The position numbers and the translations under genes were made by a program. Below the pieces are notes generated by a model that did no database searches, was not told the origin of the DNA, and saw only the letters and a list, made by a program, of their open reading frames with translations. Of a stretch of 34,662 bases of DNA, positions 18,127-33,987 are shown piece by piece (position 1 is the first letter of the stretch; the number at the start of each line of letters is the position of its first letter). Source of the stretch: an uncultured Verrucomicrobiota bacterium (lineage in GTDB: Bacteria; Verrucomicrobiota; Verrucomicrobiia; Limisphaerales; UBA9464); NCBI GenBank assembly GCA_903864375.1, contig CAIPFS010000696.1, positions 1-34,662 of the forward strand. Direction: 5' to 3'.

Positions 18127-19176
18127 TCACTTGATTCCAGGGACCACCGGGCTGGTGATCAGGGGTCCGATGTTTTTGCCGGTCCAGGTGGTCACGACCG
18201 TCTGGATGAATGAAGTGACCGCAAGGTCGGCGAGGTCCTCCACCCGAATCCACGGACGGTTGGACACGTATACCAGGTCGCGGGGCAGCAGCCGGAAGTC
18301 GGAACCCTTGCCGGCGAGGATGTCCTTGGTATCGACGATGAAACGCTCGGGATTCTCGAGGCTGCCCCGGACAACCAGCACCCGCTGGCGGAAGGCGTTT
18401 TCAGTGAAGCCACCGGCCAGCGTGATGGAGCCGAGGACACTGGCGTCAATGGAGAGCCCCTGGGCGCCGGGCGATCCCACGGCACCCAGCACGTAGATCT
18501 CATTATTCACCGAGGACGGAAAATAAAGGTAGTCGTCGGGTTCGATCAGGATGTTCTGGCTCAAATCCCCACGGCGAAACAGCTTGTCGAGGTCAATGGG
18601 AACCCGCTGATGATTCCGGATCAGAAAGCTGCGGGGCAGATCCGCCAGCTCCACTGTGTTGAGCTGAAAAATGCCTGTTTCAAGTCCACCCGCCTGAGCC
18701 ACGGCCTCGATGACGGTCATGGGACGCTCCAGTGTAAATGCTCCCTTATTAATCACCTTGCCAAGAATATAGAATTTTTTGCTCCTCAATTCCCCGGGGG
18801 TCACGATGACGCGGGGGCGGATGTAGTACCTGGACAGTTCAGAGGCGACGGCCTCCCGAAGCTCGTCGATGGTCTTCCCGGCGGCCATCACCCCAAGGGC
18901 CTGGAGGTAATTCACGCGTCCGTCAGGGGCGATGACGACATTGGGGCGGGCCAGTTCGGGATGTCCGTAAAAGGAGAATCCGATGACGTCGTTGGGTCCC
19001 AGGGTGTAGTGCTCCTGCCAGGCGGCCTTGATTCTGGAATTGCTGCCCGAAAACACCAGCGGAGCCGACGGCTTCGGCGCGGTGGGAATGATGGCTTCGT
19101 CGGCGCGGGCGATGACGAGCGCCAGACAGACGGCAAGGAAGATCCGACACCCGGGGAAGCGGGAGGAAGAGCTCAT
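18127..19176 (-). CDS. Polysaccharide export protein (Wza/OPX family), paralogue 1
   Basis: YTLGPND...PDGRVNYL..AAGKTIDELR Poly_export domain and SLBB domains (FYILGKVINKG, IYVLGAVGSPG). ATG 19176 overlaps the upstream stop (ATGA). Confidence 0.88.
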   Translation of the reverse strand: MSSSSRFPGCRIFLAVCLALVIARADEAIIPTAPKPSAPLVFSGSNSRIKAAWQEHYTLGPNDVIGFSFYGHPELARPNVVIAPDGRVNYLQALGVMAAGKTIDELREAVASELSRYYIRPRVIVTPGELRSKKFYILGKVINKGAFTLERPMTVIEAVAQAGGLETGIFQLNTVELADLPRSFLIRNHQRVPIDLDKLFRRGDLSQNILIEPDDYLYFPSSVNNEIYVLGAVGSPGAQGLSIDASVLGSITLAGGFTENAFRQRVLVVRGSLENPERFIVDTKDILAGKGSDFRLLPRDLVYVSNRPWIRVEDLADLAVTSFIQTVVTTWTGKNIGPLITSPVVPGIK

Positions 19177-21194
19177 GACCACGGGAAGAGTTTTGCCTCC
19201 TGATTCAACAGAGCCCCGGCCAGCGGGCAACGGGCATTTTGCAGGATCACCAGGCGTTCACGGACATCGCGTCCGCGAGTCTGATTGCCCCGGGCGAGCC
19301 AGAGCAACTGGGGAACCGTTTCCGCCCACATCAGGGTATCCGGCTGATCGGTTCCGGCGATTTCGAGGAGGACCACCACACCGGTGGCCTGATTCCAGCG
19401 CCCGATCACCTCCTGCCATTGCTGCCGGTGCGCCGCCGTCCATTCCCAGGCGGGTGGCAGCAGCAACCAGACGGTCTGCCCAATGACCGGACCGGCTTCA
19501 TCCGGCCGGCTCAATGCCTGTTCGATGGGAATCACCCGCCCGTTGCGGGGTGCCCGATTGGTGACCACCAACACCGACGGATGGCGTTGGCCGGCCGCGG
19601 CGGCCAGGAGCTCCATCCAGGTGGAGGCTCCCTCCCGGCGCGCAGAGGTGACGAAACCGCAGATCACGTTGCCATTGGGGGTGGCCACGAGTTTGCTTTG
19701 AAGGGCCAGCCAGGTCCGGAAGGCCCAATGCGACTGGGCAACGGCATCCAGGCTTTCGAGGTCGGGAAGGCGCGCCAGAAGGGGCAGTTTGGTGACGCGC
19801 TTCAAATCGGCCGCGGTCTTGATCCGGTCATCCAACAATTCCACGACGCAGATGCCCAACAGGGTTCCCATGACACCCAGAATGCCTCCGACCACCGCCA
19901 GGAGGATGACCTTTTTGGAGCGCCCGGACACCTCGACGTCTTCGACATTGGCGTCGAAGTAGCGGTAGTATCCCGGGGAGTTTTCCTCGTAGAGCTGGGC
20001 TTCACGCTGGCGGCTGGCCAGAAGGGAACGGGAGCCTTCCAGGGATTGCTGACGGGCCTTGATCCGCACGAGCTGCATTGCCTTTTCGGGCAGTCCGCGC
20101 AATTTCTCGTCCACCTCGGTCCGGGTCGCCTTCATCTTTTCAATCTGGGCGGCGACGACCTGCTTGTGGGTTCGCAGGGTGAGCAGTTCGGAGTAATATC
20201 CGGTGGACAAGCCACCTTCTCCCTGACGAGGGGGAGCAATGGGGTTGGTGGCGGACTCCTGGGCCCGTTTCTCCAACTCGGCCAGGAGAGCCTGCTGCTC
20301 CTGAATGATCGGGTTGAGTTCGGTGTATTCCTGGCGGAGGTCCGACAGTCGTTCGCGAGCCACCTGCAACTTTTCTTGAACCGGGCTGTGGGTGGTCAGT
20401 TCCCGTTCGAGCGCGGCCATCTGAAGGTCGATGGTTTCGTACTCGATTTTCATGGTCGAAAACCGGAGGTCCAGGTCGCCAAGGGTGCGCAGGTAGGCAT
20501 CCATCTCCTTGTCAGCGTTGATCAGGCCGGCCTGTTTGGAAAATTCCAGTTCTTCCTGATTGGCCGCCCGGAGGTCCTCCTCGGTCTTGCTCAACTGTCG
20601 CTTGAGCAGGCGGTTCATTTCCACCGCCTCCTGCGTCTGCATTTCCTTGATCAACTTCACGACGGTGTTGCCAAAAATGTTCAGAACCCGCACTGCGGCG
20701 CCGGCGCTGCGTCCTGACACGTAGGTCACGGTGATCAGATCCGTGTTGCGTTCCGGCGTCACCGTCATATTACCGATGATGGCTCGCGAGGACAGCTGGG
20801 CCTCCTCGGCCACCCGCTGCATGACCACAGGCGATTTAACCAGACTGACCAGGGTCTGGACGGTCATCTGCCGGGGTTTGAACGGTTCTCCCAATTCGGA
20901 GGCGCGAAAAGTGGCGGACGACTCCTGGCGGATGAGTTGCGCCGTGGCCTTGTAGGAGGCTGTGAATTTCTTGTACCCCAGTGCCCCGGCAAGGAGGGCG
21001 AGAACAGCTCCCGCCACCCCCATCATCCACCATCGGCGAAGGAGGGCAGCGATCAGGCGGAGGGGATCGAGCGGCATGCCGGATCCGCCAGACGGAGGCT
21101 GGGGCGGCGGCCCGGACGGCACCACACCACCGGAGGCAGTCGGGATGGTTTCCAGACTGTTGGGCGGCAGGTCAGTTTCAGGTCGGGTGGTCAC
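19173..21194 (-). CDS. Wzc/GumC-like polysaccharide co-polymerase with degenerate kinase domain
   Basis: Wzz-type N-terminus (LLRRWW-TM-YKATAQLI), long coiled-coil, second TM, ELLDDRIKTAADL...LPLLARLP linker, then a P-loop-like remnant VTSARREGAST. GTG start. Confidence 0.85.
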   Translation of the reverse strand: MTTRPETDLPPNSLETIPTASGGVVPSGPPPQPPSGGSGMPLDPLRLIAALLRRWWMMGVAGAVLALLAGALGYKKFTASYKATAQLIRQESSATFRASELGEPFKPRQMTVQTLVSLVKSPVVMQRVAEEAQLSSRAIIGNMTVTPERNTDLITVTYVSGRSAGAAVRVLNIFGNTVVKLIKEMQTQEAVEMNRLLKRQLSKTEEDLRAANQEELEFSKQAGLINADKEMDAYLRTLGDLDLRFSTMKIEYETIDLQMAALERELTTHSPVQEKLQVARERLSDLRQEYTELNPIIQEQQALLAELEKRAQESATNPIAPPRQGEGGLSTGYYSELLTLRTHKQVVAAQIEKMKATRTEVDEKLRGLPEKAMQLVRIKARQQSLEGSRSLLASRQREAQLYEENSPGYYRYFDANVEDVEVSGRSKKVILLAVVGGILGVMGTLLGICVVELLDDRIKTAADLKRVTKLPLLARLPDLESLDAVAQSHWAFRTWLALQSKLVATPNGNVICGFVTSARREGASTWMELLAAAAGQRHPSVLVVTNRAPRNGRVIPIEQALSRPDEAGPVIGQTVWLLLPPAWEWTAAHRQQWQEVIGRWNQATGVVVLLEIAGTDQPDTLMWAETVPQLLWLARGNQTRGRDVRERLVILQNARCPLAGALLNQEAKLFPWS

Positions 21195-21226: not shown

Positions 21227-22381
21227 TCAGGAACTTGCAGCCCGACGGGCAATCGCTTCCCGGTACACGGCAAGAACTTGGGACGCATTGCGCTGCCAGT
21301 CAAAGCCTGCGGCATGAACCAGGCCCAACCGGGTCAACTCTTTCCGGCGGGCGCCGTCGGAAGCCATCCGGCTCAGGCCCTGAGTCATGCTATCGACATT
21401 TTCAGGGTCGAGAACCTCGGCCGCGTTGCCAATCACCTCGGCGAGAGCACCGCGGGTGGAGCTGAGCACCGGGCATCCGCAGGCCATGGCTTCCACCGGA
21501 GGAAATCCAAATCCCTCGAACAACGACGGATAAACCATCGTTCCCGCGGCTTGATAGAGGGCGGGAAGCGCGTCATCGGGAACAAAACCCAAAAAGCGGA
21601 TGTCCCGGCTGAACGGTGATTGCGCCGCAGCGGTGCGGATCAATTCCGCACCGGGCCAATCTCCGCCACCGATGGCCAGCAACCACGGAGAGGCCGTCTG
21701 GCTCTTGAATCGATTGAAAGCATCAAACAAGCGGACGTGATTCTTCGCCGGATGCTCCAGGCGGGACACGTACAGGAAGTAAGGGCTGTCCAGCTTCCAG
21801 CGACGGGCCACCTCGGATTCCGCCTCGGGGCGGAGTCCGGGCCTGAATCTCTGATGATCAATGCCATTGTGGACCACGTGCTGGCGTTGAAGTGGAACTC
21901 CGAAGAAACGCTCAATGTCCCTGGCCGTGTTTTGGCTGATGGCGATGATCTCCTCCTGGCGGCGGGCCAATTGCCGGACAACCACCTTCCCGTAGAACAT
22001 CCGGGCGGGATCGTATTTACCCCGGACATGAAACGGAGCGAGGTCGTGAATGGTGGCCACCCGTGCGCAGGGGGCGCTCCAGACCATCCGACGGTAACTG
22101 GGAACATGAAGGACATCGATTTCCATCCGGCGCAGCAACCCCGGAAGGGTGGTATGATGCCAGAGGATATTACGAACAGCGCGACGATGCGTCTCGGGAA
22201 CGGTGACGATCTCCGCCCTGCCCCGGGCAAAGGCAAACAACGGCAACTCCTCCTCCAGCACCAACAGGACGATCTCATGGTCACCGGGTGCCTCCAACAG
22301 GGCGCGGACCAGGGCGAGAATGTATTGTCCAACGCCGGACTTGCCGCGTTGAAGGACCGAGGTGGAAAAGGCGATGCGCAT
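21227..22381 (-). CDS. Glycosyltransferase family 4
   Basis: SGVGQY, TIHDL, AISQNT, VVHNGID, KNHVRL and the EX7E motif SLFEGFGFPPVEAMACG. Confidence 0.92.
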   Translation of the reverse strand: MRIAFSTSVLQRGKSGVGQYILALVRALLEAPGDHEIVLLVLEEELPLFAFARGRAEIVTVPETHRRAVRNILWHHTTLPGLLRRMEIDVLHVPSYRRMVWSAPCARVATIHDLAPFHVRGKYDPARMFYGKVVVRQLARRQEEIIAISQNTARDIERFFGVPLQRQHVVHNGIDHQRFRPGLRPEAESEVARRWKLDSPYFLYVSRLEHPAKNHVRLFDAFNRFKSQTASPWLLAIGGGDWPGAELIRTAAAQSPFSRDIRFLGFVPDDALPALYQAAGTMVYPSLFEGFGFPPVEAMACGCPVLSSTRGALAEVIGNAAEVLDPENVDSMTQGLSRMASDGARRKELTRLGLVHAAGFDWQRNASQVLAVYREAIARRAASS

Positions 22382-22383
22382 GA

Positions 22384-23898
22384 TCAGCTCAGGAGCAGGT
22401 TATCGAGCCGGACAATCCGGAGGACGTTCAGCACTGCGGGTGTCGGACCAACAAAACGAACCTTCATTCCCAGTTTGACCCCGTGCTTCCGCACCTTGAG
22501 CATCAGCCGGACACCAGTGCTGTCGATGAACCGAACCCCTTCCAGCCGGACATCCACTTCCGAGGTGTGTCCATTGCGCAGTTCGAGGTAATACTGGGTC
22601 ATATTCCAAACCGCGTCGACGTTGGCCGCCACGACCTCGCCCGTCCATACCAGGGGTCCCACCCGCCCGGAAATGTCCAGATCGACACCCACAGGACGCT
22701 CACCTTCCCGTGCCCGGGTCAATTCGTGGGCCGCCGCCAGGTCGGGAGCGGTGGTGAACATTCCGTCCACCCGCATCAATTCCAAAGCCCGGACGACGGG
22801 GGCGGACGGACCGACCAGAACCAGTTGTCGTTCGTCGGCTCGAAGCTGTTTGAGCAGTCGAATCAGCAGTCCCAGTCCGGTGCTGTCGATGAACTGAATT
22901 TGGGAAAGGTCCGCCAGAACATGCCCTTCGCTGGCCCGGAGCAATCGGATCAGATCGCGATATCTTTCGACGGCCGCGGCATCCAACCGCTCGCCAAACC
23001 GGACGATTTCCGAAATGCCGTGGGTTGTTTCCCGGATTCCCGTCGATTCAGTTCCGGGCGTCGCGGCGGATCGATGTCGTAATTCCCACCATTGGGTTGC
23101 GATGGCTCGACCAAAGACGACGAGGTCGACCGCATATCTTTTGAAGAGGCGTTTCGGTTCCTGCAACAGGCGGAAGATCCATTCCAAACCGGTCTTTTGC
23201 ATCCACCGGGGTGCGCGACGGACGGTGCCACCGAGGAAATCGATGGTTGCTCCCACGCCCACGCTGACCGGCACACCCGATGCCATGAAATGCATGCGAA
23301 TCCATTTCTCCTGCTTGGGACAGCCAAACGCGACGAGGACGATGTCGGGTCGGGCGGCGCGCAGGCGCTGGAGGACATCCTCGTGGTCCATGTCCACCAG
23401 CGGCTTGAACGGTGGCGAATAGGAGCCCACCAGTTGAAGGCGCGGATACCGCAGACGGGTATTGGCGGTGGCCCGCTCCAGGCTCGCCTCCGCACCTCCG
23501 AGGAAGAAAATCCTCCATCCCCGGCGCTCGGCTTCCGCGAGCAGAAGGGGAACAAGGTCGGATCCGGTCACCCGTTCCGGAAGGGGATTGCCGAGCAGAC
23601 GGGAGGCCCAGACGAGGGGCATGCCGTCACACAACACCAGGTCCGCCTCTGCCAGAATTCGTTGCAGTTCCACGTCGCGCAGGGCCTGGACGGCAAAATC
23701 GACGTTGGCCGTCGCGAGATAGTGGGGACGCTTCGAAAGAATCATTTCACCAATGATTCGCAGCGTGTCAGACATGGTGACCTTGTCGAAGGGGACGCCC
23801 AACATGGCCACCGGTGCCGGACGGTCGCAAAGGCTGTTCCGTTCGCCGGGGGAGGCCGGTTTCGAGGTGGTGGGGGCAGATCCAGGAGCGGGCATCAT
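22384..23898 (-). CDS. WecB/TagA/CpsF (GT26) glycosyltransferase fused to two STAS (anti-sigma antagonist) domains
   Basis: GT26 motifs TANVD, DGMPLVWAS, ERVTGSDL, FFLGG, GCPKQEKW, RAPRWMQKTGLEW.FRL.QEP.RL..RY, followed by DLSQIQFIDSTGLGLL and RLEGVRFIDSTGVRLM STAS signatures. Start ATG 23898 or 23895. Confidence 0.9.
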   Translation of the reverse strand: MMPAPGSAPTTSKPASPGERNSLCDRPAPVAMLGVPFDKVTMSDTLRIIGEMILSKRPHYLATANVDFAVQALRDVELQRILAEADLVLCDGMPLVWASRLLGNPLPERVTGSDLVPLLLAEAERRGWRIFFLGGAEASLERATANTRLRYPRLQLVGSYSPPFKPLVDMDHEDVLQRLRAARPDIVLVAFGCPKQEKWIRMHFMASGVPVSVGVGATIDFLGGTVRRAPRWMQKTGLEWIFRLLQEPKRLFKRYAVDLVVFGRAIATQWWELRHRSAATPGTESTGIRETTHGISEIVRFGERLDAAAVERYRDLIRLLRASEGHVLADLSQIQFIDSTGLGLLIRLLKQLRADERQLVLVGPSAPVVRALELMRVDGMFTTAPDLAAAHELTRAREGERPVGVDLDISGRVGPLVWTGEVVAANVDAVWNMTQYYLELRNGHTSEVDVRLEGVRFIDSTGVRLMLKVRKHGVKLGMKVRFVGPTPAVLNVLRIVRLDNLLLS

Positions 23899-23902
23899 AT
23901 CG

Positions 23903-24325
23903 CTAGGGCACGGAATCGGTCGACAACCCAAACGGTCGACGAAGCCAGGAAATCGTGGAGGACACTTCGATGTTCCCCGTTCGGGTCAAATACACGGACA
24001 GCCGGTAGCTTTGCGGCTCGACATAGTCGCCGTGCCAGAATTCGACCCCGTTGGTGAACAACCGGGCCTCGCTCGCGGCACCCTTTGGTTCGAGAGAAAA
24101 ACGAACCGACTCCCCATCGGCAATGTCGTCGAAGGTTCGTTGCTGACCGCAGGCCGTCACCCGCAGGGCGGAGACGGTCCGTCCCGTTTCATTGTAAATC
24201 ATGATGCGGGTGGTCCCGGCGCGCACCCAGGCGACCCCGGCGGAAACAGCCAGCATCAAAATGGCGAGCAACGGCAGCCAGACCCGGCGCCGGCGCCACC
24301 AGTCAGGGGGCAAAACGACGCGCAT
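23903..24325 (-). CDS. Small membrane-anchored/secreted hypothetical protein
   Basis: 140-aa ORF that exactly fills the gap between two operon genes; WWRRRR followed by a hydrophobic helix and a beta-rich domain. Confidence 0.7.
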   Translation of the reverse strand: MRVVLPPDWWRRRRVWLPLLAILMLAVSAGVAWVRAGTTRIMIYNETGRTVSALRVTACGQQRTFDDIADGESVRFSLEPKGAASEARLFTNGVEFWHGDYVEPQSYRLSVYLTRTGNIEVSSTISWLRRPFGLSTDSVP

Positions 24326-25505
24326 AGGTTTCGCTCAATTGTCGTCCGAGTGTCTTCCAGGACAACCGGTCTCGGACCGTTTTCTGACCGGTCACCTCCA
24401 ACCGTCGGCGCAGCGCCTCATCGCGGAGACCGTTACCCGTCTCCTCAATAAATGCCTGGGCTGTGTCGGCCAGCAGGATTTCCTCACCATGCCGGAGTTC
24501 AAGACCCTGGGCACCGATGGTGGTGGAAACCACCGGTGTGCCCATCGCCATGCTTTCGGGAATCTTCAACCGGGTTCCACCGCCGATCCGCAGCGGGACG
24601 ATTTGTAACCAGGCCTGCCGGTAATAAGGGCGAACGTCGGGGACACCGCCGGTGACGGTCACCCCCTTGCGGGAGGCGTAGGCCTGAACCTCTGGAAGCG
24701 GGGCCTTTCCCACGATGAGGACCCGCAGTTGAGGCACCCATTCCAGCAGTCCGTCATGGATTTCCTCAAAAAACCAGCGGAGCGCATCGACATTGGGCGA
24801 ATAGTCCATCGCCCCGCAGAAGAGAACCGTCGGTTCAACGGCCCGGGGCACCGGCGTGGATTCAGGGGTGAAAAAATCGAGGTCCACACCGTTGGTGATC
24901 ACGAGGGTCCGGACCCGCCTTGAAATCTCGAAACAGATGAAGTTCTCATCATCGGGACCACAGACCACCTCGAGGGCGGAGCGCCGGGCGATACGGCGCT
25001 CAAAGCGTCCCAGCTTGAACAAATTCTCCCAATCAAGAATGGACTGCCGGAACCCACGGGAAAGCGCGGCCCGCTGTGCCAGTTGAAATTGAAGGTCCAC
25101 CCGGCTCCGGTCGATGGCCAGGGGTAGATCCTGATGGTCCTCCAGAAAGTACTGGGCCATGACGATGTCGCACACATGGACCAGCGGATAGGTCTCGGTC
25201 CCGATAAACCGCTTCAGGGCCTCGGCGATGTGGGGAAGCCGCCAGTGGCGGATGGTGGTGGGAAGCGGATTCAGGAGTCGATTCGAAAGCCGGGGCCAGG
25301 CGGGATGGGAGAACCGGACAAATTCCACCCGTCGACAGAATTCCTGAAAATGAGGCTTCTGATCCTCCCGCTCTCCATTTTCACACAGGGCAAGGAGATC
25401 CACCTCGTGGTCCCTCGCCAGCGCACGCAGCAGGTGATAGGTCCGTTGAAAGGTTCCCCGATCGGGCGGGTATGGAACGTAGGGGTAGACAACAAGAAGC
25501 CGCAT
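24303..25505 (-). CDS. Glycosyltransferase family 4
   Basis: PYPPDRG, NGVDLDFF, FCGAMDYSPNVDA, DVRPYY, VPLRIGGGTRLKIPESMAMG.PVVST. Confidence 0.9.
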   Translation of the reverse strand: MRLLVVYPYVPYPPDRGTFQRTYHLLRALARDHEVDLLALCENGEREDQKPHFQEFCRRVEFVRFSHPAWPRLSNRLLNPLPTTIRHWRLPHIAEALKRFIGTETYPLVHVCDIVMAQYFLEDHQDLPLAIDRSRVDLQFQLAQRAALSRGFRQSILDWENLFKLGRFERRIARRSALEVVCGPDDENFICFEISRRVRTLVITNGVDLDFFTPESTPVPRAVEPTVLFCGAMDYSPNVDALRWFFEEIHDGLLEWVPQLRVLIVGKAPLPEVQAYASRKGVTVTGGVPDVRPYYRQAWLQIVPLRIGGGTRLKIPESMAMGTPVVSTTIGAQGLELRHGEEILLADTAQAFIEETGNGLRDEALRRRLEVTGQKTVRDRLSWKTLGRQLSETYARRFAP

Positions 25506-25507: not shown

Positions 25508-26668
25508 CTAGTGGTATCGATGCCAGAGTCGTTCGTAAGCCGCAACCAATCCCGGAAGTTGGGATTCCCGGGTCCGAAGTTCGCGTTGGAGCTCGCGTTG
25601 GAGCTGATCATCGCGCCCCTCGGTTGAAAGACTCCCCACACCCCCCAGCAACAGGCAAAGGGAGTGAAACAGGCGCTCACGGGGATAGCGCCCTGATAAT
25701 ACTCCCGGCCAATACCTGTCCCGAAGGTTCACCAGACGGTTGCGCCAGGCGGGTTGTTCCGGACATTTGTCGACACGGCTGCGGGCATAGTCGGAGCCGT
25801 TGGAAAACGAGGTGCCCAACCGACGATTCTCCTGCCACAACCAGACGCTTTTCGCGATGGTCTGCAATCGCTCGAGGGAGCCCTTCAGTTCCTCCCGGGT
25901 GGCGATGGTTCGACGCGGGTGCAATTTGAATTCCACCCCCGCCTGGTGATGAACCTGGACTGCCTTGAGGAACGGCAACTCCTCCGTGGGAGCGATGGCC
26001 AGGAGTCGTCGCTGGCGTTCCCGGCAACTCCAATGGTACTCCCCACGGCTCACCAGCACGACGTCACCCAATGCCAGCTCCAGCTTGGCCAGATTGCGCC
26101 CGACGAAATCGGCCTCCTCGGATCCAAACTCCGGGCGCTCCAACCGTTCCAGGCTGAACAGGAGTCCCGAACAGCGGTTCATCAACAGCCGCGTGGCCTC
26201 ATGGAGCGGAATGCGATGGGCGTCCCGCCGGTGGGCCGCCAGCGACAGGTCCAGAACGTTGGCATCGCCAAAGATCAGCCGGTTTCCGGCTGCGAGATCA
26301 TAATAAAACATCGAGGGCGGGGATGCCAGCAGCTTGGGCAACGTCATCACCTTGAACTCGACCTCAAGTCCCGCCGCAGGGGAAAGCCGGGATCCAATGT
26401 CATGCAATGGTCCCCGGAACTTCCGTTCGGCCAACAAGGCATTGCCGCGCAAAAAGACATAAAACTCGAGGTCGTTGTAGGGCCGTTCTCCATCCGGCGT
26501 CTGAAGGACCCCCCCCTCCCCGCGTCCGTAGCCACCGCCCAGCAGAATGCCATCGAGTTTCCAGCGTGGGATCAGACTCAGGACCTCGTTGCGCACGTCG
26601 AGGCAGAGCTGCGCCAGCCGCCGTTCGAGGTCCGGTCCCCCATCCACTGTGAACCGAATGGAATTCAT
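25508..26668 (-). CDS. Uncharacterised Pol-beta-superfamily nucleotidyltransferase-like protein
   Basis: 386-aa ORF translationally coupled within the operon. ILLGGGYGRGEG...YNDLEFYVF fits the hG[GS]...Dh[DE]h signature; a downstream EVEF strand could carry the third carboxylate; helical C-terminal half. Confidence 0.65.
   Translation of the reverse strand: MNSIRFTVDGGPDLERRLAQLCLDVRNEVLSLIPRWKLDGILLGGGYGRGEGGVLQTPDGERPYNDLEFYVFLRGNALLAERKFRGPLHDIGSRLSPAAGLEVEFKVMTLPKLLASPPSMFYYDLAAGNRLIFGDANVLDLSLAAHRRDAHRIPLHEATRLLMNRCSGLLFSLERLERPEFGSEEADFVGRNLAKLELALGDVVLVSRGEYHWSCRERQRRLLAIAPTEELPFLKAVQVHHQAGVEFKLHPRRTIATREELKGSLERLQTIAKSVWLWQENRRLGTSFSNGSDYARSRVDKCPEQPAWRNRLVNLRDRYWPGVLSGRYPRERLFHSLCLLLGGVGSLSTEGRDDQLQRELQRELRTRESQLPGLVAAYERLWHRYH
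25581..25604. repeat. 12-bp in-frame tandem duplication (LQRE x2) in the nucleotidyltransferase-like gene
   Basis: TCGCGTTGGAGC occurs twice, exactly, at 25581-25592 and 25593-25604. Confidence 0.7.
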
Positions 26669-27921
26669 GATGCCACCCGGGTTCCCCGGGCCAGGGCCAC
26701 CGTCTCCAACAGGTAGCGCTCAAACTGGTCCACAACCACCGGTTCATTGTAACGGGAGCGGACCTCGGCGTGGCCCGTCGCCGCCATTCGTGCTCGGGCC
26801 ACGGGGTCAGACGCCAGTTCAACGATGCGTTCCGCCAGCTGGGCGGCATCGCCGGCCGGGTAGGTCAGGGCGTTTTCGCCGTGCCGGAATAATTCCGGGC
26901 TGCCTCCGGTCATGGTGCCGATGACGGGCAGACCGCTGCTCATGGCTTCCAGCGGTGTCAGGGCAAACGGCTCCTCCCATTCCGAGGTGAACAGGAGGGC
27001 ATCGTGTGCACGGTAGATGCCGGGCATTTCGGACGATCGGGCGGTATGAAAATAGACCGGCAGGTGATGCTCGCGAACGTAGGTGTGCAGGCGGGTGGTG
27101 TAGTCGGCATCACCCCGGCCGTAAATGTGGAGCTCACCGGGAAATCGACCCTGGACGGCCGCCATGGCCCGGAGGGCCGTCATCACTCCCTTATCCTCCG
27201 CCAGTCGTCCCACATAGAGCAGTCGGTGAAGAATCTGTGAAGCCGGGGCGGGAGTACCGGAAAACCGTCCGATATCGACCGGACAATAAATGATGGCCCC
27301 GTGGCCCACAGAATAGCCTTTCGCAGCAGTCAAATCGCGCAGCGCCCGGCTGCAAAAAGTGATCCGATCAAACCGGATGGAGCGGACCGGATCCGCGGGT
27401 GCGACGGAACTCCATTTCCGCCGTTGACCGGTCCAACCCCAAGCTGTTCGCAACACCCGGGCCAGGAGGGACGGATGGCTGCGGTTCCACCAGTCGAGCC
27501 AGACATCTGCGGCCAGGCTTCGGGCAATCCAATGATCGGACAGATGGTAGGCCGTCGGGACAGGCAACCCCTGCAAGGTCAGGCAGATCGATTTGGAAAT
27601 GCCCCCAAGGTTCCAAACATGAACGACATCGGGTTCAAACCGGGCAACGGCCTCACGGACGCACCGGTTGTTGTGCACTTCGAGATCGGCCAGCGCCCGA
27701 ATCCCCAGCCACGGATGACCAAAAAAACCGTGAACGCGGAGGTCCCGACGTACCCCGGGCTCGGTGGCATCCTCCCGAACCCCGTCCACCCGGTGATTGG
27801 AGGTCAGAACTTCCACCGTGTGTCCACGGGCACGCCACGCCGCAACCATGGCGGCGCAGATCAATTCATATCCCCCGACATAATGCGGGGGATAGAGATT
27901 GGACAGGACCAGTATTTTCAT
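26665..27921 (-). CDS. Glycosyltransferase family 4
   Basis: MKILVLSNLYPPHYVGGYE, YVGRLAEDKG and EX7E motif WEEPFALTPLEAMSSG. ATG 27921 overlaps the upstream stop (ATGA). Confidence 0.92.
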   Translation of the reverse strand: MKILVLSNLYPPHYVGGYELICAAMVAAWRARGHTVEVLTSNHRVDGVREDATEPGVRRDLRVHGFFGHPWLGIRALADLEVHNNRCVREAVARFEPDVVHVWNLGGISKSICLTLQGLPVPTAYHLSDHWIARSLAADVWLDWWNRSHPSLLARVLRTAWGWTGQRRKWSSVAPADPVRSIRFDRITFCSRALRDLTAAKGYSVGHGAIIYCPVDIGRFSGTPAPASQILHRLLYVGRLAEDKGVMTALRAMAAVQGRFPGELHIYGRGDADYTTRLHTYVREHHLPVYFHTARSSEMPGIYRAHDALLFTSEWEEPFALTPLEAMSSGLPVIGTMTGGSPELFRHGENALTYPAGDAAQLAERIVELASDPVARARMAATGHAEVRSRYNEPVVVDQFERYLLETVALARGTRVAS

Positions 27922-28787
27922 GCGGGTGTGGATTCCTTCCAGCCCTGGCGGTAGCCGGCCAGCTTGCCAGCCCGCTGCGCCCATCGCACCCGCGCGGCAT
28001 GAGGCCATTCACCGAACCTCCGGTGGCTGGAGCAAAACCGGAAATCATGCCGGACGTCGCTCAGCCAGCCGAGAAGGACAATACGCCACCAGGAAATCCC
28101 GTCCGGATGCCGGCTCCAGGCCCGGGCGATGGCCCGGGCGTCGCCAAAGCTTCGTCGCCGGGCCTGTTCGACGGTGTAGTTATGCGAGTGCATCACCACC
28201 GATTCCGGGACATAGAGGACGTCGTAGCCCTGCGCCCGGCACCAGCGTGTATATTCATCGTCCTCGGCGTACTGCAATTCCTCCCGGAATCCACGGCGCG
28301 CCCAGGCATCCCGCCGGAGGCCGCTGCTGACCATGCTGAAAAAATGCTCCCACCGGGCGGATTCCCGGGCGGGACCAAAGCAGCGTTCATAATCACAGGC
28401 ATACACAGCCTGGCAGTCCGGACGCGGAATCTGACGTCCGAAAACCGCTGCGACCCGGGGATTGGCCAGCGGAGCCGCCAGCCGGGGAAGCCAGTCGGTC
28501 CCCTGGGGCGTCGCGTCGGCATTGAGAAAGAGGCAGACGTCGGCGCGGGCCAGCCGCATCCCATGATTCATGACCCGGCTGGGATTATATTCCGCGGGTG
28601 TGATCTGGATGAAGTGGGCCGGCTGGAACGCCCGGATGAGCTCCTGGGATCCGTCGGTGGATCCAGAGTCGATCACGATGAGCTCCCAATTCCGATACTG
28701 CTGAGCCCGCAGGGCCGGGAGCGTCCCCTTGAGGGCCCACGCCTCGTTGTACGAGCGCATGATGATGCTGACCAGCGGTTCGCTCAT
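27918..28787 (-). CDS. Glycosyltransferase family 2 (rhamnosyltransferase-like)
   Basis: VSIIMRSYNE, VIDSGSTDGS, FLNAD (DxD variant), AAVFGRQIPR, YAEDD, VMHSHNY. Confidence 0.9.
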   Translation of the reverse strand: MSEPLVSIIMRSYNEAWALKGTLPALRAQQYRNWELIVIDSGSTDGSQELIRAFQPAHFIQITPAEYNPSRVMNHGMRLARADVCLFLNADATPQGTDWLPRLAAPLANPRVAAVFGRQIPRPDCQAVYACDYERCFGPARESARWEHFFSMVSSGLRRDAWARRGFREELQYAEDDEYTRWCRAQGYDVLYVPESVVMHSHNYTVEQARRRSFGDARAIARAWSRHPDGISWWRIVLLGWLSDVRHDFRFCSSHRRFGEWPHAARVRWAQRAGKLAGYRQGWKESTPA

Positions 28788-30346
28788 GGGACGGACCTCC
28801 GACGGATCGGAAAACGACGGCCAAATTTCCGGGTCAATTCCTCCTGTTCGCCCGGTCGCAAGGCCATTCGCCAGAGTCCGAACGCACCCACCACGCCCGC
28901 CAGCGTCCCCTCAATGAACATGGCGGCCATGGTCGAGCCACCGGGTGCCAGTACGACCAGTTTCAAGGCGATCAGGACGGCCAGCATGGGGAGGCATCCC
29001 AGCCACGAGGGAATCACGGATTGCCGGAACAAGGGCCAGCCTTTGAGACCCGTGTTCTTGGCCATCCATGGCCACAAGTGGACCCATCCGAAATAGAGGG
29101 TGGGAATCAATGAACCGACCGCCACCGCCACCACGCTCCGGGTTGCCAGCACCAGGCCGACACTGAGAATGAGATTGGCGGCAGCCTCGCCGAGGCCAAG
29201 CCACATCAGTCGACGTTCATGGCCGGTCATCATGAAGATCCGCTTGGAAACGCTATGGGTCAGGATCGTGGTGTAAAACCAGGCCAGCAGCACATGTCCC
29301 ACAAGGATGGTATCCGCCGAGAGCGACTTGTCGCCGGTCAACAAACGAAGCAGCTCGGAAAGGTAAAAGGCACAGAGCAGGTAGAGCGGCGTGGCGATCA
29401 GCACGGTCCAGCGAAGGCTGTTGACCAGCAAATCCTGAAGCGCGGCCGTGTCTCCGGTGGCATGGAGATGGGCCGCTGCCGGCGAGAGGGTGTCCTGCAC
29501 CTGCTTGGTGAACTGGCTGAACACCTCGGCCACTTTTGCGCCGGCCTGATAGAGTGCCACTGCCGAAACCGAGAGAGCGGCACCGAGCACCAGCTGATCG
29601 GTTTTCCCCAACACGATGTTGGTGGCGGTGCCCAGGTAGGCAAACACCGAAAACTGCATGGTCTCCCCCATCATCGACGGTGAAAACAGCGACGGACGAA
29701 TCCGAACGCCAGGCATCCGCTGGAGGGCGAAGAGCGCCGCCAGAAAGTCGGGGGCCAATGCAAAGAACAGCGCGATGAACATCACCGCCATGAAACTCCA
29801 CTTGAACCAGACGGCGGCGGCGATGAAACCGAGCCGCAGGATCAGCGCTCCGGAAATCAGGTTGTTGGTCAGCCGGATGCGTTGCTGCCCGCGGAGCACC
29901 TCCGGGAAGATGCCCATCGGAAAGGCCAGCCCGATGCCGAGAAAAAACACCACCATGACCTTGCGGAACTCCTCATGATTGGCGGCGGAGACGCCAAACC
30001 ATCGGACGATGGTGGCCGAGCCCGCCAGGACCACCAATGCGATGGCCACGGAAATACCGGCATAGAAGACCAGGATGGTGCTCAGCACCCGGCTGAGCTT
30101 TTCCCAATCCTTCAGGACCGAAAGTTCGGCCACCCGCTTTTGGGCGGCAAAGCCGAATCCGAAATCGAGAAGGATGCCATACCCAAACACACTCCAGAGC
30201 AGCGACCAAAAGCCAAACTGCTCCTGATTCAGGGACTGATACAACATCCGGAACGTGAGCAGACCGACGGCCATGCCCAGGACGGTCCGGACATAGTTCG
30301 AAATCGAGTTGCTCCAGATGTTGCGTTTGACCTCGGCGTAGCTCAT
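28784..30346 (-). CDS. wzx: Oligosaccharide flippase (Wzx, MOP superfamily)
   Basis: About 520 aa with many TM segments; L..EQFGFW...LLDFGF and KTDQLVLGAALSVSAVALYQ motifs. ATG 30346 overlaps the upstream stop (ATGA). Confidence 0.85.
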   Translation of the reverse strand: MSYAEVKRNIWSNSISNYVRTVLGMAVGLLTFRMLYQSLNQEQFGFWSLLWSVFGYGILLDFGFGFAAQKRVAELSVLKDWEKLSRVLSTILVFYAGISVAIALVVLAGSATIVRWFGVSAANHEEFRKVMVVFFLGIGLAFPMGIFPEVLRGQQRIRLTNNLISGALILRLGFIAAAVWFKWSFMAVMFIALFFALAPDFLAALFALQRMPGVRIRPSLFSPSMMGETMQFSVFAYLGTATNIVLGKTDQLVLGAALSVSAVALYQAGAKVAEVFSQFTKQVQDTLSPAAAHLHATGDTAALQDLLVNSLRWTVLIATPLYLLCAFYLSELLRLLTGDKSLSADTILVGHVLLAWFYTTILTHSVSKRIFMMTGHERRLMWLGLGEAAANLILSVGLVLATRSVVAVAVGSLIPTLYFGWVHLWPWMAKNTGLKGWPLFRQSVIPSWLGCLPMLAVLIALKLVVLAPGGSTMAAMFIEGTLAGVVGAFGLWRMALRPGEQEELTRKFGRRFPIRRRSVP

Positions 30347-31629
30347 GGGGCCGTCCTCCCGAAACGCGTTGCCGCATGACGCTCTGCCGCCCGATAGAGC
30401 CCTTCCAATTGAACCGCCACGCGGCTCCAGTCGTAGCGTCCCCGGGCCTCCTCCCGCCCGGCTTCGCCCAACCGGCGGCGCAGACCGGAATCGCCAGCGA
30501 GAAGCAGCAGACGTTGGGTAAGGTCGGCGGCGGTCCCCTCCTCCCCGGGGCGGATGAAAAGGCCGTTTTCCCCGTCGTGAATCAGCGCCCGGAGGCCACC
30601 CACATGATTTGCGACCACCGCCCGACCGGCACTCCACGCCTCCAGCACCACGATGCCGAACGGCTCATGGCGGGACGGCAGCACAAAGACGTCGCAGGCG
30701 TGATAGGCCTCCACGAGCTGGGGATCGTCGTTGCGCAGCCCCGGCAGCAATCGAACGGAACCGGAAAGCTGTCGTTCGGCCACCAGAGCCCGGAGACGTG
30801 CAGCGTAGTCCGGCTGGGTCTCCGGTCCGATCAGGACCAGAAAGGCATCGGGCTGATGACGGATGAATTCAGAAAATGCCTCCAGCAGAAGCAGTTGATT
30901 TTTTTGGGGATCAATCCGGCTGAGGTTCAGAACCACGAATCCGTTCGCGGGGATTCCATGACGGCGACGGAATGCGGCACCGTCCCCGGTGGCGAAACGG
31001 GCCGAATCCACCCCATTCGGCAGGTAGGCAATGCGATCGTGTTTCAACTGCCCCCGGGCCTTCTCGAGTTCACCCGCCCCCACGCAGATCACTTGATCGG
31101 CATCGTCCAGAATACGTCGGGATCCGAAGAGGGCCCCGAAAACCTTGCCCCACTCCGGCTTGTTGGCGATGGGGCGGAGCATCTGTTCCCGTTCGGCCTC
31201 AGGAACATCAAACACGCCGCCATGGAGGGTCACGACAAACGGTTTCCGACGGAGACGGGCGGCGGTTCGAACCTCTCCACCCAGCCGCTTGAGGGCGTGG
31301 GCATGGAACAGCCGCACGTTGGGGCGGGATAAGAGCCCACAGAAGAGGGAGAGGGAAAGCAGGTTGCCCCCTTTTTTGTCCATGGCGGCCCGGTCCTCGC
31401 GGCTCAACCCCAAAAAAGGATAACAGTAGGGATACCGGTGGACCGGCACTCCCCCCAATTCCTCATGCCTCTGACTGGCCAGGGCCATGGAGGTCATGAT
31501 TTCCGGAGCGGCACCCGCGCGTTGTTGCTGACGCGAGATCTCGAGAATCACGGTTTCCGTGCCTCCCCATTCCGCGGCGACAAACCGGCGGGGAACATGA
31601 ACGATCCGTTGTTTCTCCGACGGGTTCAC
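30343..31629 (-). CDS. Glycosyltransferase family 4
   Basis: WGGTET, TLHGG, LPNGVD, SRIDPQKNQ and EX7E motif RHEPFGIVVLEAWSAG. GTG start overlapping the upstream stop. Confidence 0.92.
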   Translation of the reverse strand: MNPSEKQRIVHVPRRFVAAEWGGTETVILEISRQQQRAGAAPEIMTSMALASQRHEELGGVPVHRYPYCYPFLGLSREDRAAMDKKGGNLLSLSLFCGLLSRPNVRLFHAHALKRLGGEVRTAARLRRKPFVVTLHGGVFDVPEAEREQMLRPIANKPEWGKVFGALFGSRRILDDADQVICVGAGELEKARGQLKHDRIAYLPNGVDSARFATGDGAAFRRRHGIPANGFVVLNLSRIDPQKNQLLLLEAFSEFIRHQPDAFLVLIGPETQPDYAARLRALVAERQLSGSVRLLPGLRNDDPQLVEAYHACDVFVLPSRHEPFGIVVLEAWSAGRAVVANHVGGLRALIHDGENGLFIRPGEEGTAADLTQRLLLLAGDSGLRRRLGEAGREEARGRYDWSRVAVQLEGLYRAAERHAATRFGRTAP

Positions 31630-32384
31630 GAGCGCAGAAAGAGGAAGGTGCCCCCTTCCTCCCGTTCAACGTGAAATCCGAGATTCAACAAATCCCCGAC
31701 AATCCGGTAGGTGGCCGCATGCCCGATGAAACCAGGGTGCAATTCAACGATGATCTTGCGAACGGAGGCGGGAAGCTGGCGGAAATCGACATATTGTTCG
31801 GCCCCTTCAATGTCCATGATGAAAGCCGTGGGGGAATAATCCATCCGGGACACGAGGGTGGTCAGGGACACTCCCGGGACCTGAACCGAGCGCCCGCCGG
31901 AACCGGCGACCAGCGAGTTTTCCCAAAATTCGTTGCCGATATTCAAGGTCACCATCCCGTCCGATGCCGCCAGTGCCAGATTCAAGACGTTCGGAGTGCG
32001 TCCGTTGATTTCGTAGTTGCGCTTGAGGCGCTCCACGGTTCCCGGATTGGCCTCCACCGTCGTGTAGCGGGTGATGCCAACGCGAATCTGGCAGAACAGA
32101 CCGATGAACCCGATGGCACCTCCCACCTCCAGGACCGTGTCCTCCGGGCGCAGGAACTGTTGTGCCAGCAGACGTTCCTGCACTTCATAACGCCCCAGCA
32201 GAAGATTATTCTTCATCACGGAGGACAATCCTTTGACCTCCAATTGCACCCCCTCCAGGGTGACACGCTCCACCTTGGGCAGGGAGAACTTAAACCGCCA
32301 GCGGGTGCGAAAATCCTGCCAGAGCTGATACAGGAGCGTTCGCTCGATCAGGCTGGGGCGTGTCGACGAAGGGGTGGAACTCAT
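31626..32384 (-). CDS. FkbM-family SAM-dependent methyltransferase
   Basis: VLEVGGAIG (motif I), TVEANP, FIMDIEGAE and IIVELH are FkbM/Methyltransf_21 motifs. Confidence 0.88.
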   Translation of the reverse strand: MSSTPSSTRPSLIERTLLYQLWQDFRTRWRFKFSLPKVERVTLEGVQLEVKGLSSVMKNNLLLGRYEVQERLLAQQFLRPEDTVLEVGGAIGFIGLFCQIRVGITRYTTVEANPGTVERLKRNYEINGRTPNVLNLALAASDGMVTLNIGNEFWENSLVAGSGGRSVQVPGVSLTTLVSRMDYSPTAFIMDIEGAEQYVDFRQLPASVRKIIVELHPGFIGHAATYRIVGDLLNLGFHVEREEGGTFLFLRS

Positions 32385-33598: not shown

Positions 33599-33987
33599 GG
33601 CGTGGAAGGAGGTGTTGCCAGGGTGGAGATCAGGCGACGGGCTTCGGCCGCCAGGGAACTGGGACTGAACGGCTTGGTCAGGTAGAGCGCCGCCCCGGAG
33701 CCCTGGGCTTCCGTGCGGGTGATGGTCTGACCGCGGGTGGTCAGCATGATGATGGGGATGGCGGAGGTCGAGGGAGTCGCCTTCAGATGCCGGAGGGCGG
33801 TGATTCCGTCCATTTCCGGCATGGTGACATCCATGACGATCAGGGCCGGGAGTTCCCGGCTGGCCAGCTCAATGGCCTCACGACCACTCCGGGCCGTCAG
33901 GATTTGATACCCATCCTTCTTCAGGCTCAGTTCGGTGAGTCGCAACATGTGCGGCTCGTCATCCACGATGAGAACTTTGCGGCTCAT
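33595..33987 (-). CDS. Single-domain response regulator (receiver only)
   Basis: VLIVDDE, phospho-acceptor in IVMDVTMPEMDG, MLT and YLTKPFSP; 130 aa with no output domain. Confidence 0.92.
   Translation of the reverse strand: MSRKVLIVDDEPHMLRLTELSLKKDGYQILTARSGREAIELASRELPALIVMDVTMPEMDGITALRHLKATPSTSAIPIIMLTTRGQTITRTEAQGSGAALYLTKPFSPSSLAAEARRLISTLATPPSTP

Follow-up and report, generated by a model that had tools for sequence, protein, structure and literature searches.

A GT26 glycosyltransferase fused to tandem STAS domains in an exopolysaccharide operon is a candidate for direct phospho-control

The window analysed here, a 34,662-nucleotide contig of an uncultured Verrucomicrobiota bacterium, carries a gene in which a glycosyltransferase of family GT26 (WecG/TagA type) is followed in frame by two STAS domains. 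Given that two switch domains are fused to this enzyme and that a matching kinase and phosphatase are co-encoded with it, direct phosphorylation probably switches the enzyme on and off. The reading that we favour, and hold with moderate confidence, is a partner-switch-like phospho-switch that would act directly on the GT26 enzyme via its fused STAS domains and would be run by the kinase-GAF-PP2C protein of the same operon.

The coding sequence occupies positions 22384..23898 of the minus strand and specifies 504 amino acids plus a stop, starting from an ATG. A longer frame from an alternative TTG start (22384..23931, minus strand) can also be drawn, but the ATG is preferred because a small upstream gene ends at 23903. 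Pfam places the GT26 domain first and the two STAS domains after it. Glyco_tran_WecG (PF03808) matches residues 85-255 over all 168 profile positions (E 2e-66, 223 bits against a cut-off of 27.4), and STAS (PF01740; E 3.2e-25, 88 bits) and STAS_2 (PF13466; E 5.2e-20) each match two stretches of the protein above their curated cut-offs. Of the NCBIfam models, TIGR00696 (wecG_tagA_cpsF) passes with 160 against a cut-off of 69, and TIGR00377 (anti-sigma factor antagonist) matches two stretches with 83 bits against 53. In a genome-wide profile search, STAS domain 1 (61 bits) and STAS domain 2 (34 bits) each exceeded the cut-off. The architecture of GT26 plus tandem STAS, as proposed in an earlier sequence-only reading of this DNA, is thus borne out by Pfam and NCBIfam matches that all lie over their cut-offs.

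The GT26 catalytic region, of GT-E type, spans 23074..23814 (minus strand; residues about 29-275, delimited from Pfam, the alignment to TagA 7mpk and Foldseek) and closes with a C-terminal helical appendage formed by helices 231-274 of the AlphaFold2 model, with R243, R250 and R254. STAS domain 1 (22714..23043, minus strand; residues about 286-395) and STAS domain 2 (22387..22713, minus strand; residues about 396-504) follow. Each carries the motif FIDSTG, with Ser339 encoded at 22882-22884 and Ser460 at 22519-22521; the two codons lie exactly where they had been assigned from the letters alone (22884-22882 and 22521-22519). The AlphaFold2 model of the whole fused protein has a mean pLDDT of 92.5 and a pTM of 0.90, and in it Ser339 and Ser460 are the first residues of helices 339-354 and 460-475, respectively.

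The source assembly is fragmented (731 contigs, 76% complete), which leaves room for the view that the fusion is an artefact, arising from mis-assembly or from a lost stop codon in a metagenome-assembled genome. The same three Pfam families, however, were present in all 120 of the best homologues listed, which come from many sources, and 106 of 150 cluster representatives (50% identity clusters) cover the GT26 and both STAS domains. The fused form is also found in complete genomes of cultured strains, namely Desulfoluna limicola (L077) and Cerasicoccus frondis (L065). Together, the homologue architectures and the complete cultured genomes rule out an artefactual fusion, to which we attach practically no probability. 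GT26-STAS proteins are spread over Verrucomicrobiota, Desulfobacterales, Lentisphaerales, Armatimonadota and other groups. The initial assertion that typical GT26 enzymes are single-domain proteins holds for the characterised ones, but the fused form makes up a large family.

As part of the explanation that we consider best, the gene would encode a catalytically competent glycosyltransferase of the TagA/WecG/GumM type with a GT-E fold, judging from the residues that it retains. In the alignment, TagA residues T37, N39, D65, R83, Q167, E168, R214 and R221 (comprising the Asp that acts as catalytic base, the pocket-forming Thr and Asn, Arg83, the Gln-Glu pair and the appendage arginines, numbered as in PMC6493773) correspond to T63, N65, D91, R109, Q196, E197, R243 and R250 here. 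These positions are nearly invariant across an alignment of 91 family members, and they are kept in 9 of 10 cross-phylum members, the single exception being Q196A. Positions aligned to the membrane-patch residues of TagA are hydrophobic (W232, L238, I241 and L245). The best Foldseek match of the predicted structure of the GT26 part is TagA 7mpk (TM 0.92, target-normalised; rmsd 1.7 A over 195 columns), and the predicted structure has the GT-E fold.

This fold and the catalytic and appendage residues are shared with TagA/TarA of Thermoanaerobacter italicus (PDB 5WB4, 5WFG, 7MPK and 7N41), WecG and GumM, and like these enzymes the fused enzyme probably works on the product of the priming enzyme. 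It differs from them in its STAS domains, which TagA/TarA, WecG and GumM do not possess. Identity to TagA is about 34%, and TagA Tyr137, which stacks on the uracil, aligns with Pro163 of the fused enzyme. Orthology to TarA, WecG or EpsA was rejected, as every equivalog score falls far under its cut-off (TarA NF041710, 137 against 350; WecG NF002980, 102 against 323; EpsA NF041872, 184 against 500), and so none of these named GT26 enzymes is orthologous to the fused enzyme. Most likely, the enzyme would add the second sugar to the undecaprenyl-PP-sugar supplied by the Bac_transf priming enzyme of the cluster. Bac_transf, Wzx, PCP and Wza are all encoded in the cluster, a context predicted to go with an undecaprenyl-PP-linked acceptor.

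The serine of D-S-[ST]-G, which we take to be the acceptor position in SpoIIAA and RsbV, is strongly conserved in both STAS domains. Asp338 and Ser339 are kept in 121 of 121 close homologues; 120 of the 121 have Asp459, and at position 460 there is serine in 115 sequences and threonine in 6. The sequence-only reading had staked its idea of phospho-control on the conservation of these serines in orthologues, and the counts agree with it. In the 91-sequence alignment, with members down to 31% identity, S339, D459 and S460 are at least 90% conserved. The initial idea that two sites could allow graded or two-input control meets a mixed picture further out. Of 106 diverse tandem members, 67 retain D-[ST] in both domains, and the loss can affect either site: 39 have only one D-[ST] or none, and 4 are without either serine, as counted on a quick (faster-setting) mafft alignment of 151 sequences. 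Given these losses, phospho-control cannot be universal in the wider family. The best Foldseek matches of the STAS parts are SpoIIAA, RsbV and TM1442 (TM 0.73-0.87).

The fused gene is embedded in a minus-strand exopolysaccharide operon of the Wzx/Wza type. From the contig end towards the fused gene, the minus strand encodes the C-terminal SpoIIE/PP2C domain of the kinase-GAF-PP2C gene, which is cut by the contig end (33989..34660; SpoIIE match 33992-34660, E 7e-42); a single-domain response-regulator receiver (REC) of 130 amino acids, the stop of which overlaps the start of the next gene (33595..33987; E 1e-27); an alkaline-phosphatase-superfamily (Phosphodiest) protein (32381..33598); and a 252-amino-acid protein with no Pfam match at E 0.001 and a faint FkbM-type methyltransferase match at E 0.069 (31626..32384). 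There follow a GT4 glycosyltransferase (30343..31629); a Wzx-type flippase (MatE/Polysacc_synt_3; 28784..30637), whose true start is likely near 30430 because its orthologues have 548 amino acids; a GT2 glycosyltransferase (27918..28787); a GT4 glycosyltransferase (26665..28008), which may actually begin at an internal ATG (27921) that overlaps the GT2 stop; a conserved 386-amino-acid protein without a Pfam family (25508..26668); a further GT4 glycosyltransferase (24303..25505); and the small upstream gene mentioned above (23903..24325), whose 140-amino-acid product has a hydrophobic N-terminal stretch and is conserved in genome G001. A GT4 glycosyltransferase lies immediately downstream of the fused gene (21227..22381), and beyond it are a Wzz/PCP-like chain-length protein (19173..21194; the Wzz match is just below the Pfam cut-off) and two tandem Wza-type export proteins (Poly_export plus SLBB; 18127-19230 and 17025-18125), again on the minus strand.

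The rest of the operon was located on contig C557 of the same genome, which encodes Bac_transf, a hexapeptide transferase and a 111-amino-acid stand-alone STAS protein with DSSG. The STAS gene stands directly before the kinase gene, and the N-terminal 378 residues of the kinase-GAF-PP2C protein (the RsbW-like kinase and GAF-like domains) are encoded at the C557 end. The orthologue in genome G002, a 606-amino-acid HATPase_c_2-GAF-SpoIIE protein, served as the reference for the join: C557 stops at residue 378 and the window resumes at 384, with no exact overlap between the C557 end and the window end and about five codons missing. The N-box and G-box residues of the kinase are invariant in 15 orthologues. 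The GAF match is marginal: it scores 24.8 bits in this genome, below the cut-off of 27, which the G002 protein just passes (27.2 bits).

These components resemble the partner switches of Bacillus subtilis (SpoIIAA/SpoIIAB/SpoIIE and RsbV/RsbW/RsbU) in the STAS fold with D-S-[ST]-G at a helix start, in an RsbW-type kinase with intact N and G boxes and in a SpoIIE-type phosphatase. Unlike in the B. subtilis switches, the STAS domains here are part of an enzyme, the kinase and phosphatase form one polypeptide and no sigma factor is seen. Pfam scans of the cluster genes, of the G002 extension and of the flanks of a second STAS/RsbW pair in this genome (contig C417) found no sigma-factor families and so lend no support to a sigma-factor partner switch. 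The suggestion that the enzyme titrates an anti-sigma factor and thereby feeds back on transcription is conceivable but gains no support from these scans either; moreover, kinase and phosphatase are joined in one protein here, an arrangement shared with SypE, whose action lies below transcription (PMC10120452). What stands of the initial interpretation is the architecture, the two serines and their conservation, and its idea of phospho-control gains strong context from the phosphatase-kinase, STAS and receiver genes of the operon and from the co-occurrence of the kinase-GAF-PP2C gene with the fusion among close relatives.

Of 41 relatives, 7 carry the fused GT26, and all 7 also have the kinase-GAF-PP2C gene; of the 34 that lack the fusion, 4 have that gene (Fisher p 1.5e-5, in which kin are not independent). 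In a sample of the phylum, for which 3 candidates per genome were scored, an orthologue (E 1e-40) was detected in 3 of 21 tandem-form genomes against 4 of 379 others; at this scale, the idea that the fused enzyme always goes with the kinase-GAF-PP2C gene is rejected. Genomes G043, G044 and G045 contain no full-length orthologue. In 80 loci taken from genome contigs, a kinase and/or PP2C gene occurs within 9 of 48 fused loci and within 0 of 32 unfused GT26 loci, and the remaining 39 fused loci have no kinase or PP2C within about 10 kb. The position of the kinase/PP2C gene varies from about 11 kb upstream (G041) or 6 kb upstream (L039) to 1.2 kb downstream (L039 and G041 being upstream cases, G309 the downstream one).

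Most distant loci, then, are without a nearby kinase or phosphatase, and one or both serines are absent in some family members. Both observations would suit a role in which the STAS domains are not phosphorylated and serve instead as a protein-protein, oligomerisation, ligand-binding or membrane-binding module (as in SLC26, MlaB and RsbR/RsbS) that assembles the enzyme with pathway proteins, the serines being kept for structure. MlaB and sulP models also match weakly, and SLC26 STAS chains are among the fold-search hits. We nevertheless judge such a scaffolding role to be rather unlikely, given that the best family match is to the anti-sigma-antagonist type (the TIGR00377 score above), that D-S-[ST]-G hardly varies in either domain among relatives, and that the operon supplies a kinase and a phosphatase, which co-occur with the fusion.

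Sequence comparison within the genome bears on which STAS domain the kinase would serve. The nearest relative of both fused domains is the stand-alone STAS of the operon (STAS1, 34% identity; STAS2, 35%), STAS1 and STAS2 being less similar to each other (31%) than either is to the stand-alone protein; against the other STAS of the genome, on C417, STAS1 has 24% identity and STAS2 gives no match. We count this similarity in favour of the phospho-switch, but the three operon STAS domains, as mutual nearest relatives, could also compete for one binding site. It is thus conceivable that the stand-alone STAS is the real effector and that the fused domains bind the RsbW-like kinase chiefly as competitors of that protein, or else that they report pathway status; in neither case would the activity of the enzyme itself be regulated. 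The stand-alone STAS with DSSG directly adjoins the kinase gene and the two stay together in 4 relatives without the fused GT26, so that the fused STAS domains need not be kinase substrates; in Vibrio, moreover, it is a stand-alone STAS protein, SypA, that is the downstream effector (PMC10120452). We consider this competition unlikely, since no sigma-factor or other obvious output gene is seen in the cluster and the simplest reason for fusing STAS domains to an enzyme is that the enzyme is what they control, as with All4160 (PMC13555669). The pTM of 0.90 for the three-domain model further suggests that the STAS domains are packed against the enzyme.

Under the favoured phospho-switch, the operon kinase would itself engage the fused domains. 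A predicted complex in which the tandem STAS meets two kinase domains scored 0.60, against 0.06 for the best control. Of 80 solved complexes, 58 attain the pass mark, as do 2 of 110 mismatched pairs; scores of 0.60 or below were obtained for only 7 of those 80 solved complexes and for both of the mismatches that passed. At least 93% of contacts are shared between runs, with a partner pLDDT of at least 76, but because the SpoIIAB-SpoIIAA and RsbW-RsbV complexes are already solved, the predictor may be reproducing known structures. We therefore read the predicted complex as weak support for phosphorylation of the tandem STAS by the operon kinase.

We infer that the operon would encode a partner-switch-like phospho-relay whose recipients are the two C-terminal SpoIIAA-type STAS domains. 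The RsbW-like serine kinase domain would phosphorylate Ser339 and/or Ser460, the phosphate would be taken off by the SpoIIE/PP2C domain, which belongs to the same three-domain protein, and the GAF-like domain together with the adjacent stand-alone receiver protein would set the balance between kinase and phosphatase. The STAS domains appear to attach directly to the end of the C-terminal appendage, which in TagA supplies active-site arginines and the membrane-binding face, and by this route the phosphorylation state would decide whether the appendage docks and the enzyme associates with the membrane, and thereby how active it is. The active form is probably the unphosphorylated one, as the analogy with All4160 and SypA suggests. 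Because exopolysaccharide synthesis draws on a shared undecaprenyl-phosphate pool, the carrier-committing step that follows priming would be a sensible point for a fast switch.

Direct phospho-control of a glycan-assembly enzyme via a fused STAS domain was first shown in 2026, and only for a different enzyme, the cyanobacterial priming enzyme All4160. In All4160 of Anabaena sp. PCC 7120 (STAS plus Bac_transf), phosphorylation of the acceptor serine, Ser74, by the kinase Alr3423 inhibits the enzyme and the SpoIIE-type HenR reactivates it; All2285 and Synechocystis XssP are related cases (PMC13555669, Mol Microbiol 2026). The parallels with the present operon are a polysaccharide transferase bearing a SpoIIAA-type STAS domain with an acceptor serine, an RsbW-type kinase and a SpoIIE-type phosphatase, and the control of All4160 acts on the enzyme rather than on a sigma factor, as we propose for the fused GT26. 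All4160, however, is a priming phosphoglycosyl transferase of the Bac_transf family with one N-terminal STAS domain, whereas here a next-step GT26 enzyme bears two C-terminal ones. In the present case, kinase, GAF-like domain and phosphatase make up one protein, whose gene shares the operon of the enzyme with those for a REC protein and an additional stand-alone STAS. The two systems also come from different phyla, and the cyanobacterial fusion was called lineage-specific by its authors (PMC13555669).

No publication on a GT26-STAS fusion was found in the literature searched, the coverage of which leaves most subscription journals outside. If our reading is true, GT26-STAS proteins extend direct phospho-control to a different enzyme class, to further bacterial groups and to a two-site design. 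The reading is directly testable in cultured carriers, for example Cerasicoccus frondis NBRC 105381 and Desulfoluna limicola ASN36, whose proteins each have D-S in the two STAS domains.

A second relevant system is that of Vibrio fischeri, in which the kinase-REC-phosphatase protein SypE controls the STAS protein SypA (acceptor Ser56) within a polysaccharide locus and below the level of transcription, the target of SypA being given as unknown (PMC10120452); SypA and SypE of the syp locus are also treated in PMC4517449. The likeness, in domain layout and gene content, lies in a stand-alone STAS and a tripartite kinase-sensor-phosphatase encoded in a polysaccharide locus. In contrast to SypA with its unknown target, the STAS domains described here are fused to a candidate class of target, and our reading, if true, provides a concrete candidate for what SypA-type stand-alone STAS proteins act on. 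A bolder proposal, which we regard as possible but doubtful, is that the tandem STAS tail would be a built-in receiver whose two sites each engage one protomer of a dimeric RsbW-like kinase, and would gate a TagA-type appendage/membrane switch of a committed-step glycosyltransferase. As a Rosetta stone, the fusion would then reveal the 'unknown target' of SypA-type STAS proteins as an early glycosyltransferase of the lipid-linked pathway, and direct phospho-control of glycan assembly would be a general bacterial strategy, not a cyanobacterial speciality. The two regulators also differ in their centre, which is a REC domain in SypE and a GAF-like domain here, where the REC is a separate gene.

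The minus-strand open frame at 22384..23931 encodes a GT26 glycosyltransferase fused to two STAS domains. The in-frame ATG at 23898 is the better-fitting start, since a 140-aa gene upstream runs to 23903, and gives a product of 504 aa (22384–23898). Pfam matches Glyco_tran_WecG (PF03808) over its full profile at residues 85–255 (E 2e-66), and STAS (PF01740, E 3.2e-25) and STAS_2 (PF13466, E 5.2e-20) to two stretches each. In NCBIfam, the protein exceeds the thresholds for two superfamilies, wecG_tagA_cpsF and TIGR00377 (anti-sigma-factor antagonist), so that the two profile collections agree on the architecture proposed in the sequence-only reading. Scores far below the NCBIfam equivalog cut-offs rule out an identity as TarA, WecG or EpsA. 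In a Foldseek search with the AlphaFold2 model (mean pLDDT 92.5, pTM 0.90), the N-terminal part resembled TagA (TM 0.92 normalised to target) and the STAS parts TM1442, SpoIIAA, RsbV and RsbS, while the combined GT26-STAS-STAS architecture was absent from solved chains.

Alignment to full-length TagA (7mpk), with residue roles as described in PMC6493773, indicates that the catalytic base Asp65 corresponds to D91 and Thr37, which orients the donor sugar, to T63. The conserved pocket residues Asn39, Arg83, Gln167 and Glu168 correspond to N65, R109, Q196 and E197, and the appendage arginines Arg214 and Arg221, the latter stabilising the UDP phosphate, to R243 and R250. These eight residues are near-invariant across a 91-sequence family alignment and are retained in nine of ten members of different phyla, one having Q196A; judged by this conservation, the GT26 part looks active. 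Hydrophobic residues occupy the positions matching the TagA membrane patch. The uracil-stacking Tyr137 of TagA has Pro163 as its counterpart, and the donor may therefore differ from that of TagA.

Both STAS domains carry FIDSTG, with the serine codons exactly where they had been read, at 22884–22882 (Ser339) and 22521–22519 (Ser460), and in the model each serine is the first residue of a helix (339–354 and 460–475). The serines proved to be conserved among 121 close homologues: D338 and S339 occur in 121/121 and D459 in 120/121, and position 460 is Ser in 115 and Thr in 6. S339, G343, D459 and S460 are also at least 90% conserved in the 91-sequence alignment, whose members reach down to 31% identity. 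Among 106 diverse tandem cluster representatives, compared by quick alignment, D-[ST] is found in both STAS domains in 67, in STAS1 only in 12, in STAS2 only in 22 and in neither in 5, four of which are without serine at either site. These counts indicate that both sites are under selection in most lineages and that each can be lost. On sequence grounds, both STAS domains look like phospho-acceptors; alternatively, they may be unphosphorylated scaffolds.

The fused gene belongs to a long operon on the minus strand, whose part within the window opens with a SpoIIE/PP2C-domain gene cut by the contig end (33989–34660, E 7e-42) and a 130-aa receiver protein (33595–33987, E 1e-27) whose stop overlaps the start of the next gene. 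There follow an alkaline-phosphatase-superfamily protein, a protein of unknown family, GT4, Wzx, GT2, GT4, a 386-aa protein without a Pfam family (25508–26668), GT4, a small, N-terminally hydrophobic protein, the fused enzyme, GT4, a 673-aa Wzz/PCP-like protein (19173–21194; Pfam Wzz 24.9 against a cut-off of 25.5 bits) and two tandem Wza-type exporters (Poly_export plus SLBB, 18127–19230 and 17025–18125). A sigma-factor gene was not seen in the cluster, and titration of an anti-sigma factor by the fused enzyme, which had been offered as a second explanation, is thus without support.

The 386-aa protein is conserved at the same cluster position in three relatives (G001, G002 and G004; 58–82% identity). 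A search of the long C-terminal part of the Wzz/PCP-like protein found no kinase family, and this protein may be a PCP whose cytoplasmic domain is degenerate or novel. The exporters are distantly alike, the 18127–19230 copy being ~37% identical to orthologues of the 17025–18125 copy; in genome G011, the counterpart of one exporter and the PCP form a single 1,113-aa ORF. Outside the operon, all on the minus strand, lie two long putative ORFs (11472–13502, 676 aa, and 13850–15865, 671 aa) with no Pfam family at E 0.001, a GH26 mannanase-family gene adjoining a 3-keto-disaccharide-hydrolase-domain gene (5679–7824), and a 997-aa tricorn-like protease with PD40, Tricorn_C1, PDZ and S41 domains (2086–5079).

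The cut phosphatase gene is complete in G002, a genome of the same genus whose fused enzyme is 90% identical, where it encodes 606 aa: an RsbW-like kinase (HATPase_c_2), then a GAF domain, then SpoIIE. Upstream of this kinase-GAF-PP2C gene, G002 encodes a 111-aa STAS protein, a hexapeptide transferase, a Bac_transf priming enzyme, a uridine-kinase-like protein and a GT4. By tblastn, another contig of the window's genome, C557 (L016:1801-2916), stops at residue 378 of the G002 protein (84% identity), and the window takes it up at residue 384 (91% identity); the two contig ends share no exact sequence overlap. These end points indicate that the gene is merely split by a contig break, and hence that the polysaccharide cluster continues on C557, which also encodes a Bac_transf enzyme, a hexapeptide transferase and a STAS protein with DSSG. 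The N-box and G-box residues of the kinase are invariant across 15 orthologues. STAS1 and STAS2 are each closest to this stand-alone STAS (34% and 35% identity) and are 31% identical to each other. Possibly the stand-alone protein is the true substrate and effector and the fused STAS domains compete with it.

A separate pair on contig C417 (L017:1054-1791) comprises an RsbW-like kinase of 133 aa and a STAS of 101 aa with C-S-A-G in place of D-S-x-G; its neighbours are an oxidoreductase and a universal stress protein, not a sigma factor. This STAS is 24% identical to STAS1 and gave no match to STAS2.

We propose that phosphorylation of the fused STAS domains would form a partner-switch-like phospho-relay ending on the enzyme itself. 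A complex prediction for two kinase domains with the tandem STAS scored 0.60, the best of three controls reaching 0.06; runs agreed in at least 93% of contacts, with partner pLDDT at least 76. The mark applied is passed by 58 of 80 solved complexes and 2 of 110 mismatched pairs, with only 7 of the 80, and both passing mismatches, scoring ≤0.60. Because SpoIIAB-SpoIIAA and RsbW-RsbV complexes have been solved, the pass may reflect memorised structures, and the prediction lends weak support to the kinase–STAS complex. TagA alternates between two states (PMC6493773): dimers in solution are inactive, and monomers bound to the membrane are active, with a C-terminal appendage folded onto the active site. 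In the model, the corresponding appendage (helices 231–274) leads directly into STAS1, and, to judge from the high pTM, the three domains pack against one another; phosphorylated serines could thus gate appendage docking or membrane binding. The unphosphorylated form would be the active one, by analogy with All4160, an Anabaena STAS-Bac_transf enzyme which the kinase Alr3423 inhibits and whose S74A variant overcomes loss of phosphatase HenR (PMC13555669), and with SypA, the stand-alone STAS of the Vibrio fischeri syp locus, active as S56A and inactive as S56D (PMC10120452).

Against the 2026 All4160 precedent, the fusion is a new variant: its transferase belongs to a different class, its two STAS domains are C-terminal, kinase, GAF-like sensor and phosphatase form one protein, and its carriers belong to different phyla. 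No treatment of a GT26-STAS fusion was found among the papers listed by the literature searches, which reached few subscription journals. The window adds a case in which every part of the module (priming enzyme, stand-alone STAS, kinase-GAF-PP2C, REC and fused enzyme) is encoded in one operon and both serines are intact.

Scored at E ≤1e-40, a kinase-GAF-PP2C orthologue is present in 7/7 close relatives with the fused enzyme versus 4/34 without it, and in those four a stand-alone STAS still lies beside the kinase. Related genomes are not independent, so Fisher values overstate this co-occurrence. In profile searches of 80 GTDB loci, a kinase and/or PP2C lay inside 9/48 fused versus 0/32 unfused GT26 loci, with flanks limited to 10 kb that miss arrangements like the window's own (10–12 kb). 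The gene lies ~11 kb upstream on the same strand in genome G041; a kinase/PP2C is upstream at locus L039 and on the opposite strand at L047. In G309, which belongs to the same class and consists of one contig, an open frame of 594 aa matching GAF-PP2C (in the region G309:C1:3523851-3527728) lies 1.2 kb downstream of a tandem-STAS GT26 on the same strand, an order unlike the window's. Such variable order favours a functional link over synteny that was simply inherited. Counting against the link, an orthologue (E 1e-40, three candidates scored per genome) occurs in 3/21 tandem carriers versus 4/379 others among 400 genomes sampled evenly from the window's phylum, each at least 90% complete, and genomes G043, G044 and G045 are without a full-length orthologue.

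A check of taxonomic spread revealed a large family in several phyla. Among 8,000 candidates scored from a 5.8-billion-protein collection, 3,665 proteins matched at E ≤0.001. All 120 homologues among the matches listed (50–100% identity) have the same three Pfam families; their source names are Verrucomicrobiota, Limisphaerales, Pedosphaera and Verrucomicrobiales, plus one Methylomirabilota label, and one reads 'Anti-sigma-factor antagonist and glycosyl transferase'. In the best 150 matches from an exhaustive search of 50%-identity cluster representatives, quick alignment covered GT26 and both STAS domains in 106, GT26 and STAS1 only in 30 and GT26 only in 9; five, probably fragments, are missing most of GT26. 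Within the best 80 of 589 confirmed loci in GTDB species genomes, the tandem form occurs in many Verrucomicrobiota orders, including cultured Cerasicoccus frondis NBRC 105381, and in Lentisphaerales, Desulfobacterales, Armatimonas and one Baltobacteraceae MAG; the one-STAS form occurs in Acidobacteriota (Terracidiphilus), Bryobacterales, Anaerolineae and Chthonomonadales. Among the Desulfobacterales carriers of the tandem form is Desulfoluna limicola ASN36, whose genome is complete. In the 400-genome sample, matches run through both STAS domains in 21 genomes and into STAS1 only in 15 more. Of 41 close relatives, seven encode the fused form, truncated at contig ends in two; in the remaining relatives, GT26 is found only as a stand-alone enzyme (~35% identity). 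A second GT26, stand-alone and 34% identical to the fused one, is encoded in the window's own genome (G000:C210:586-1353), as in most relatives; the fused enzyme is thus an extra, cluster-specific paralogue.
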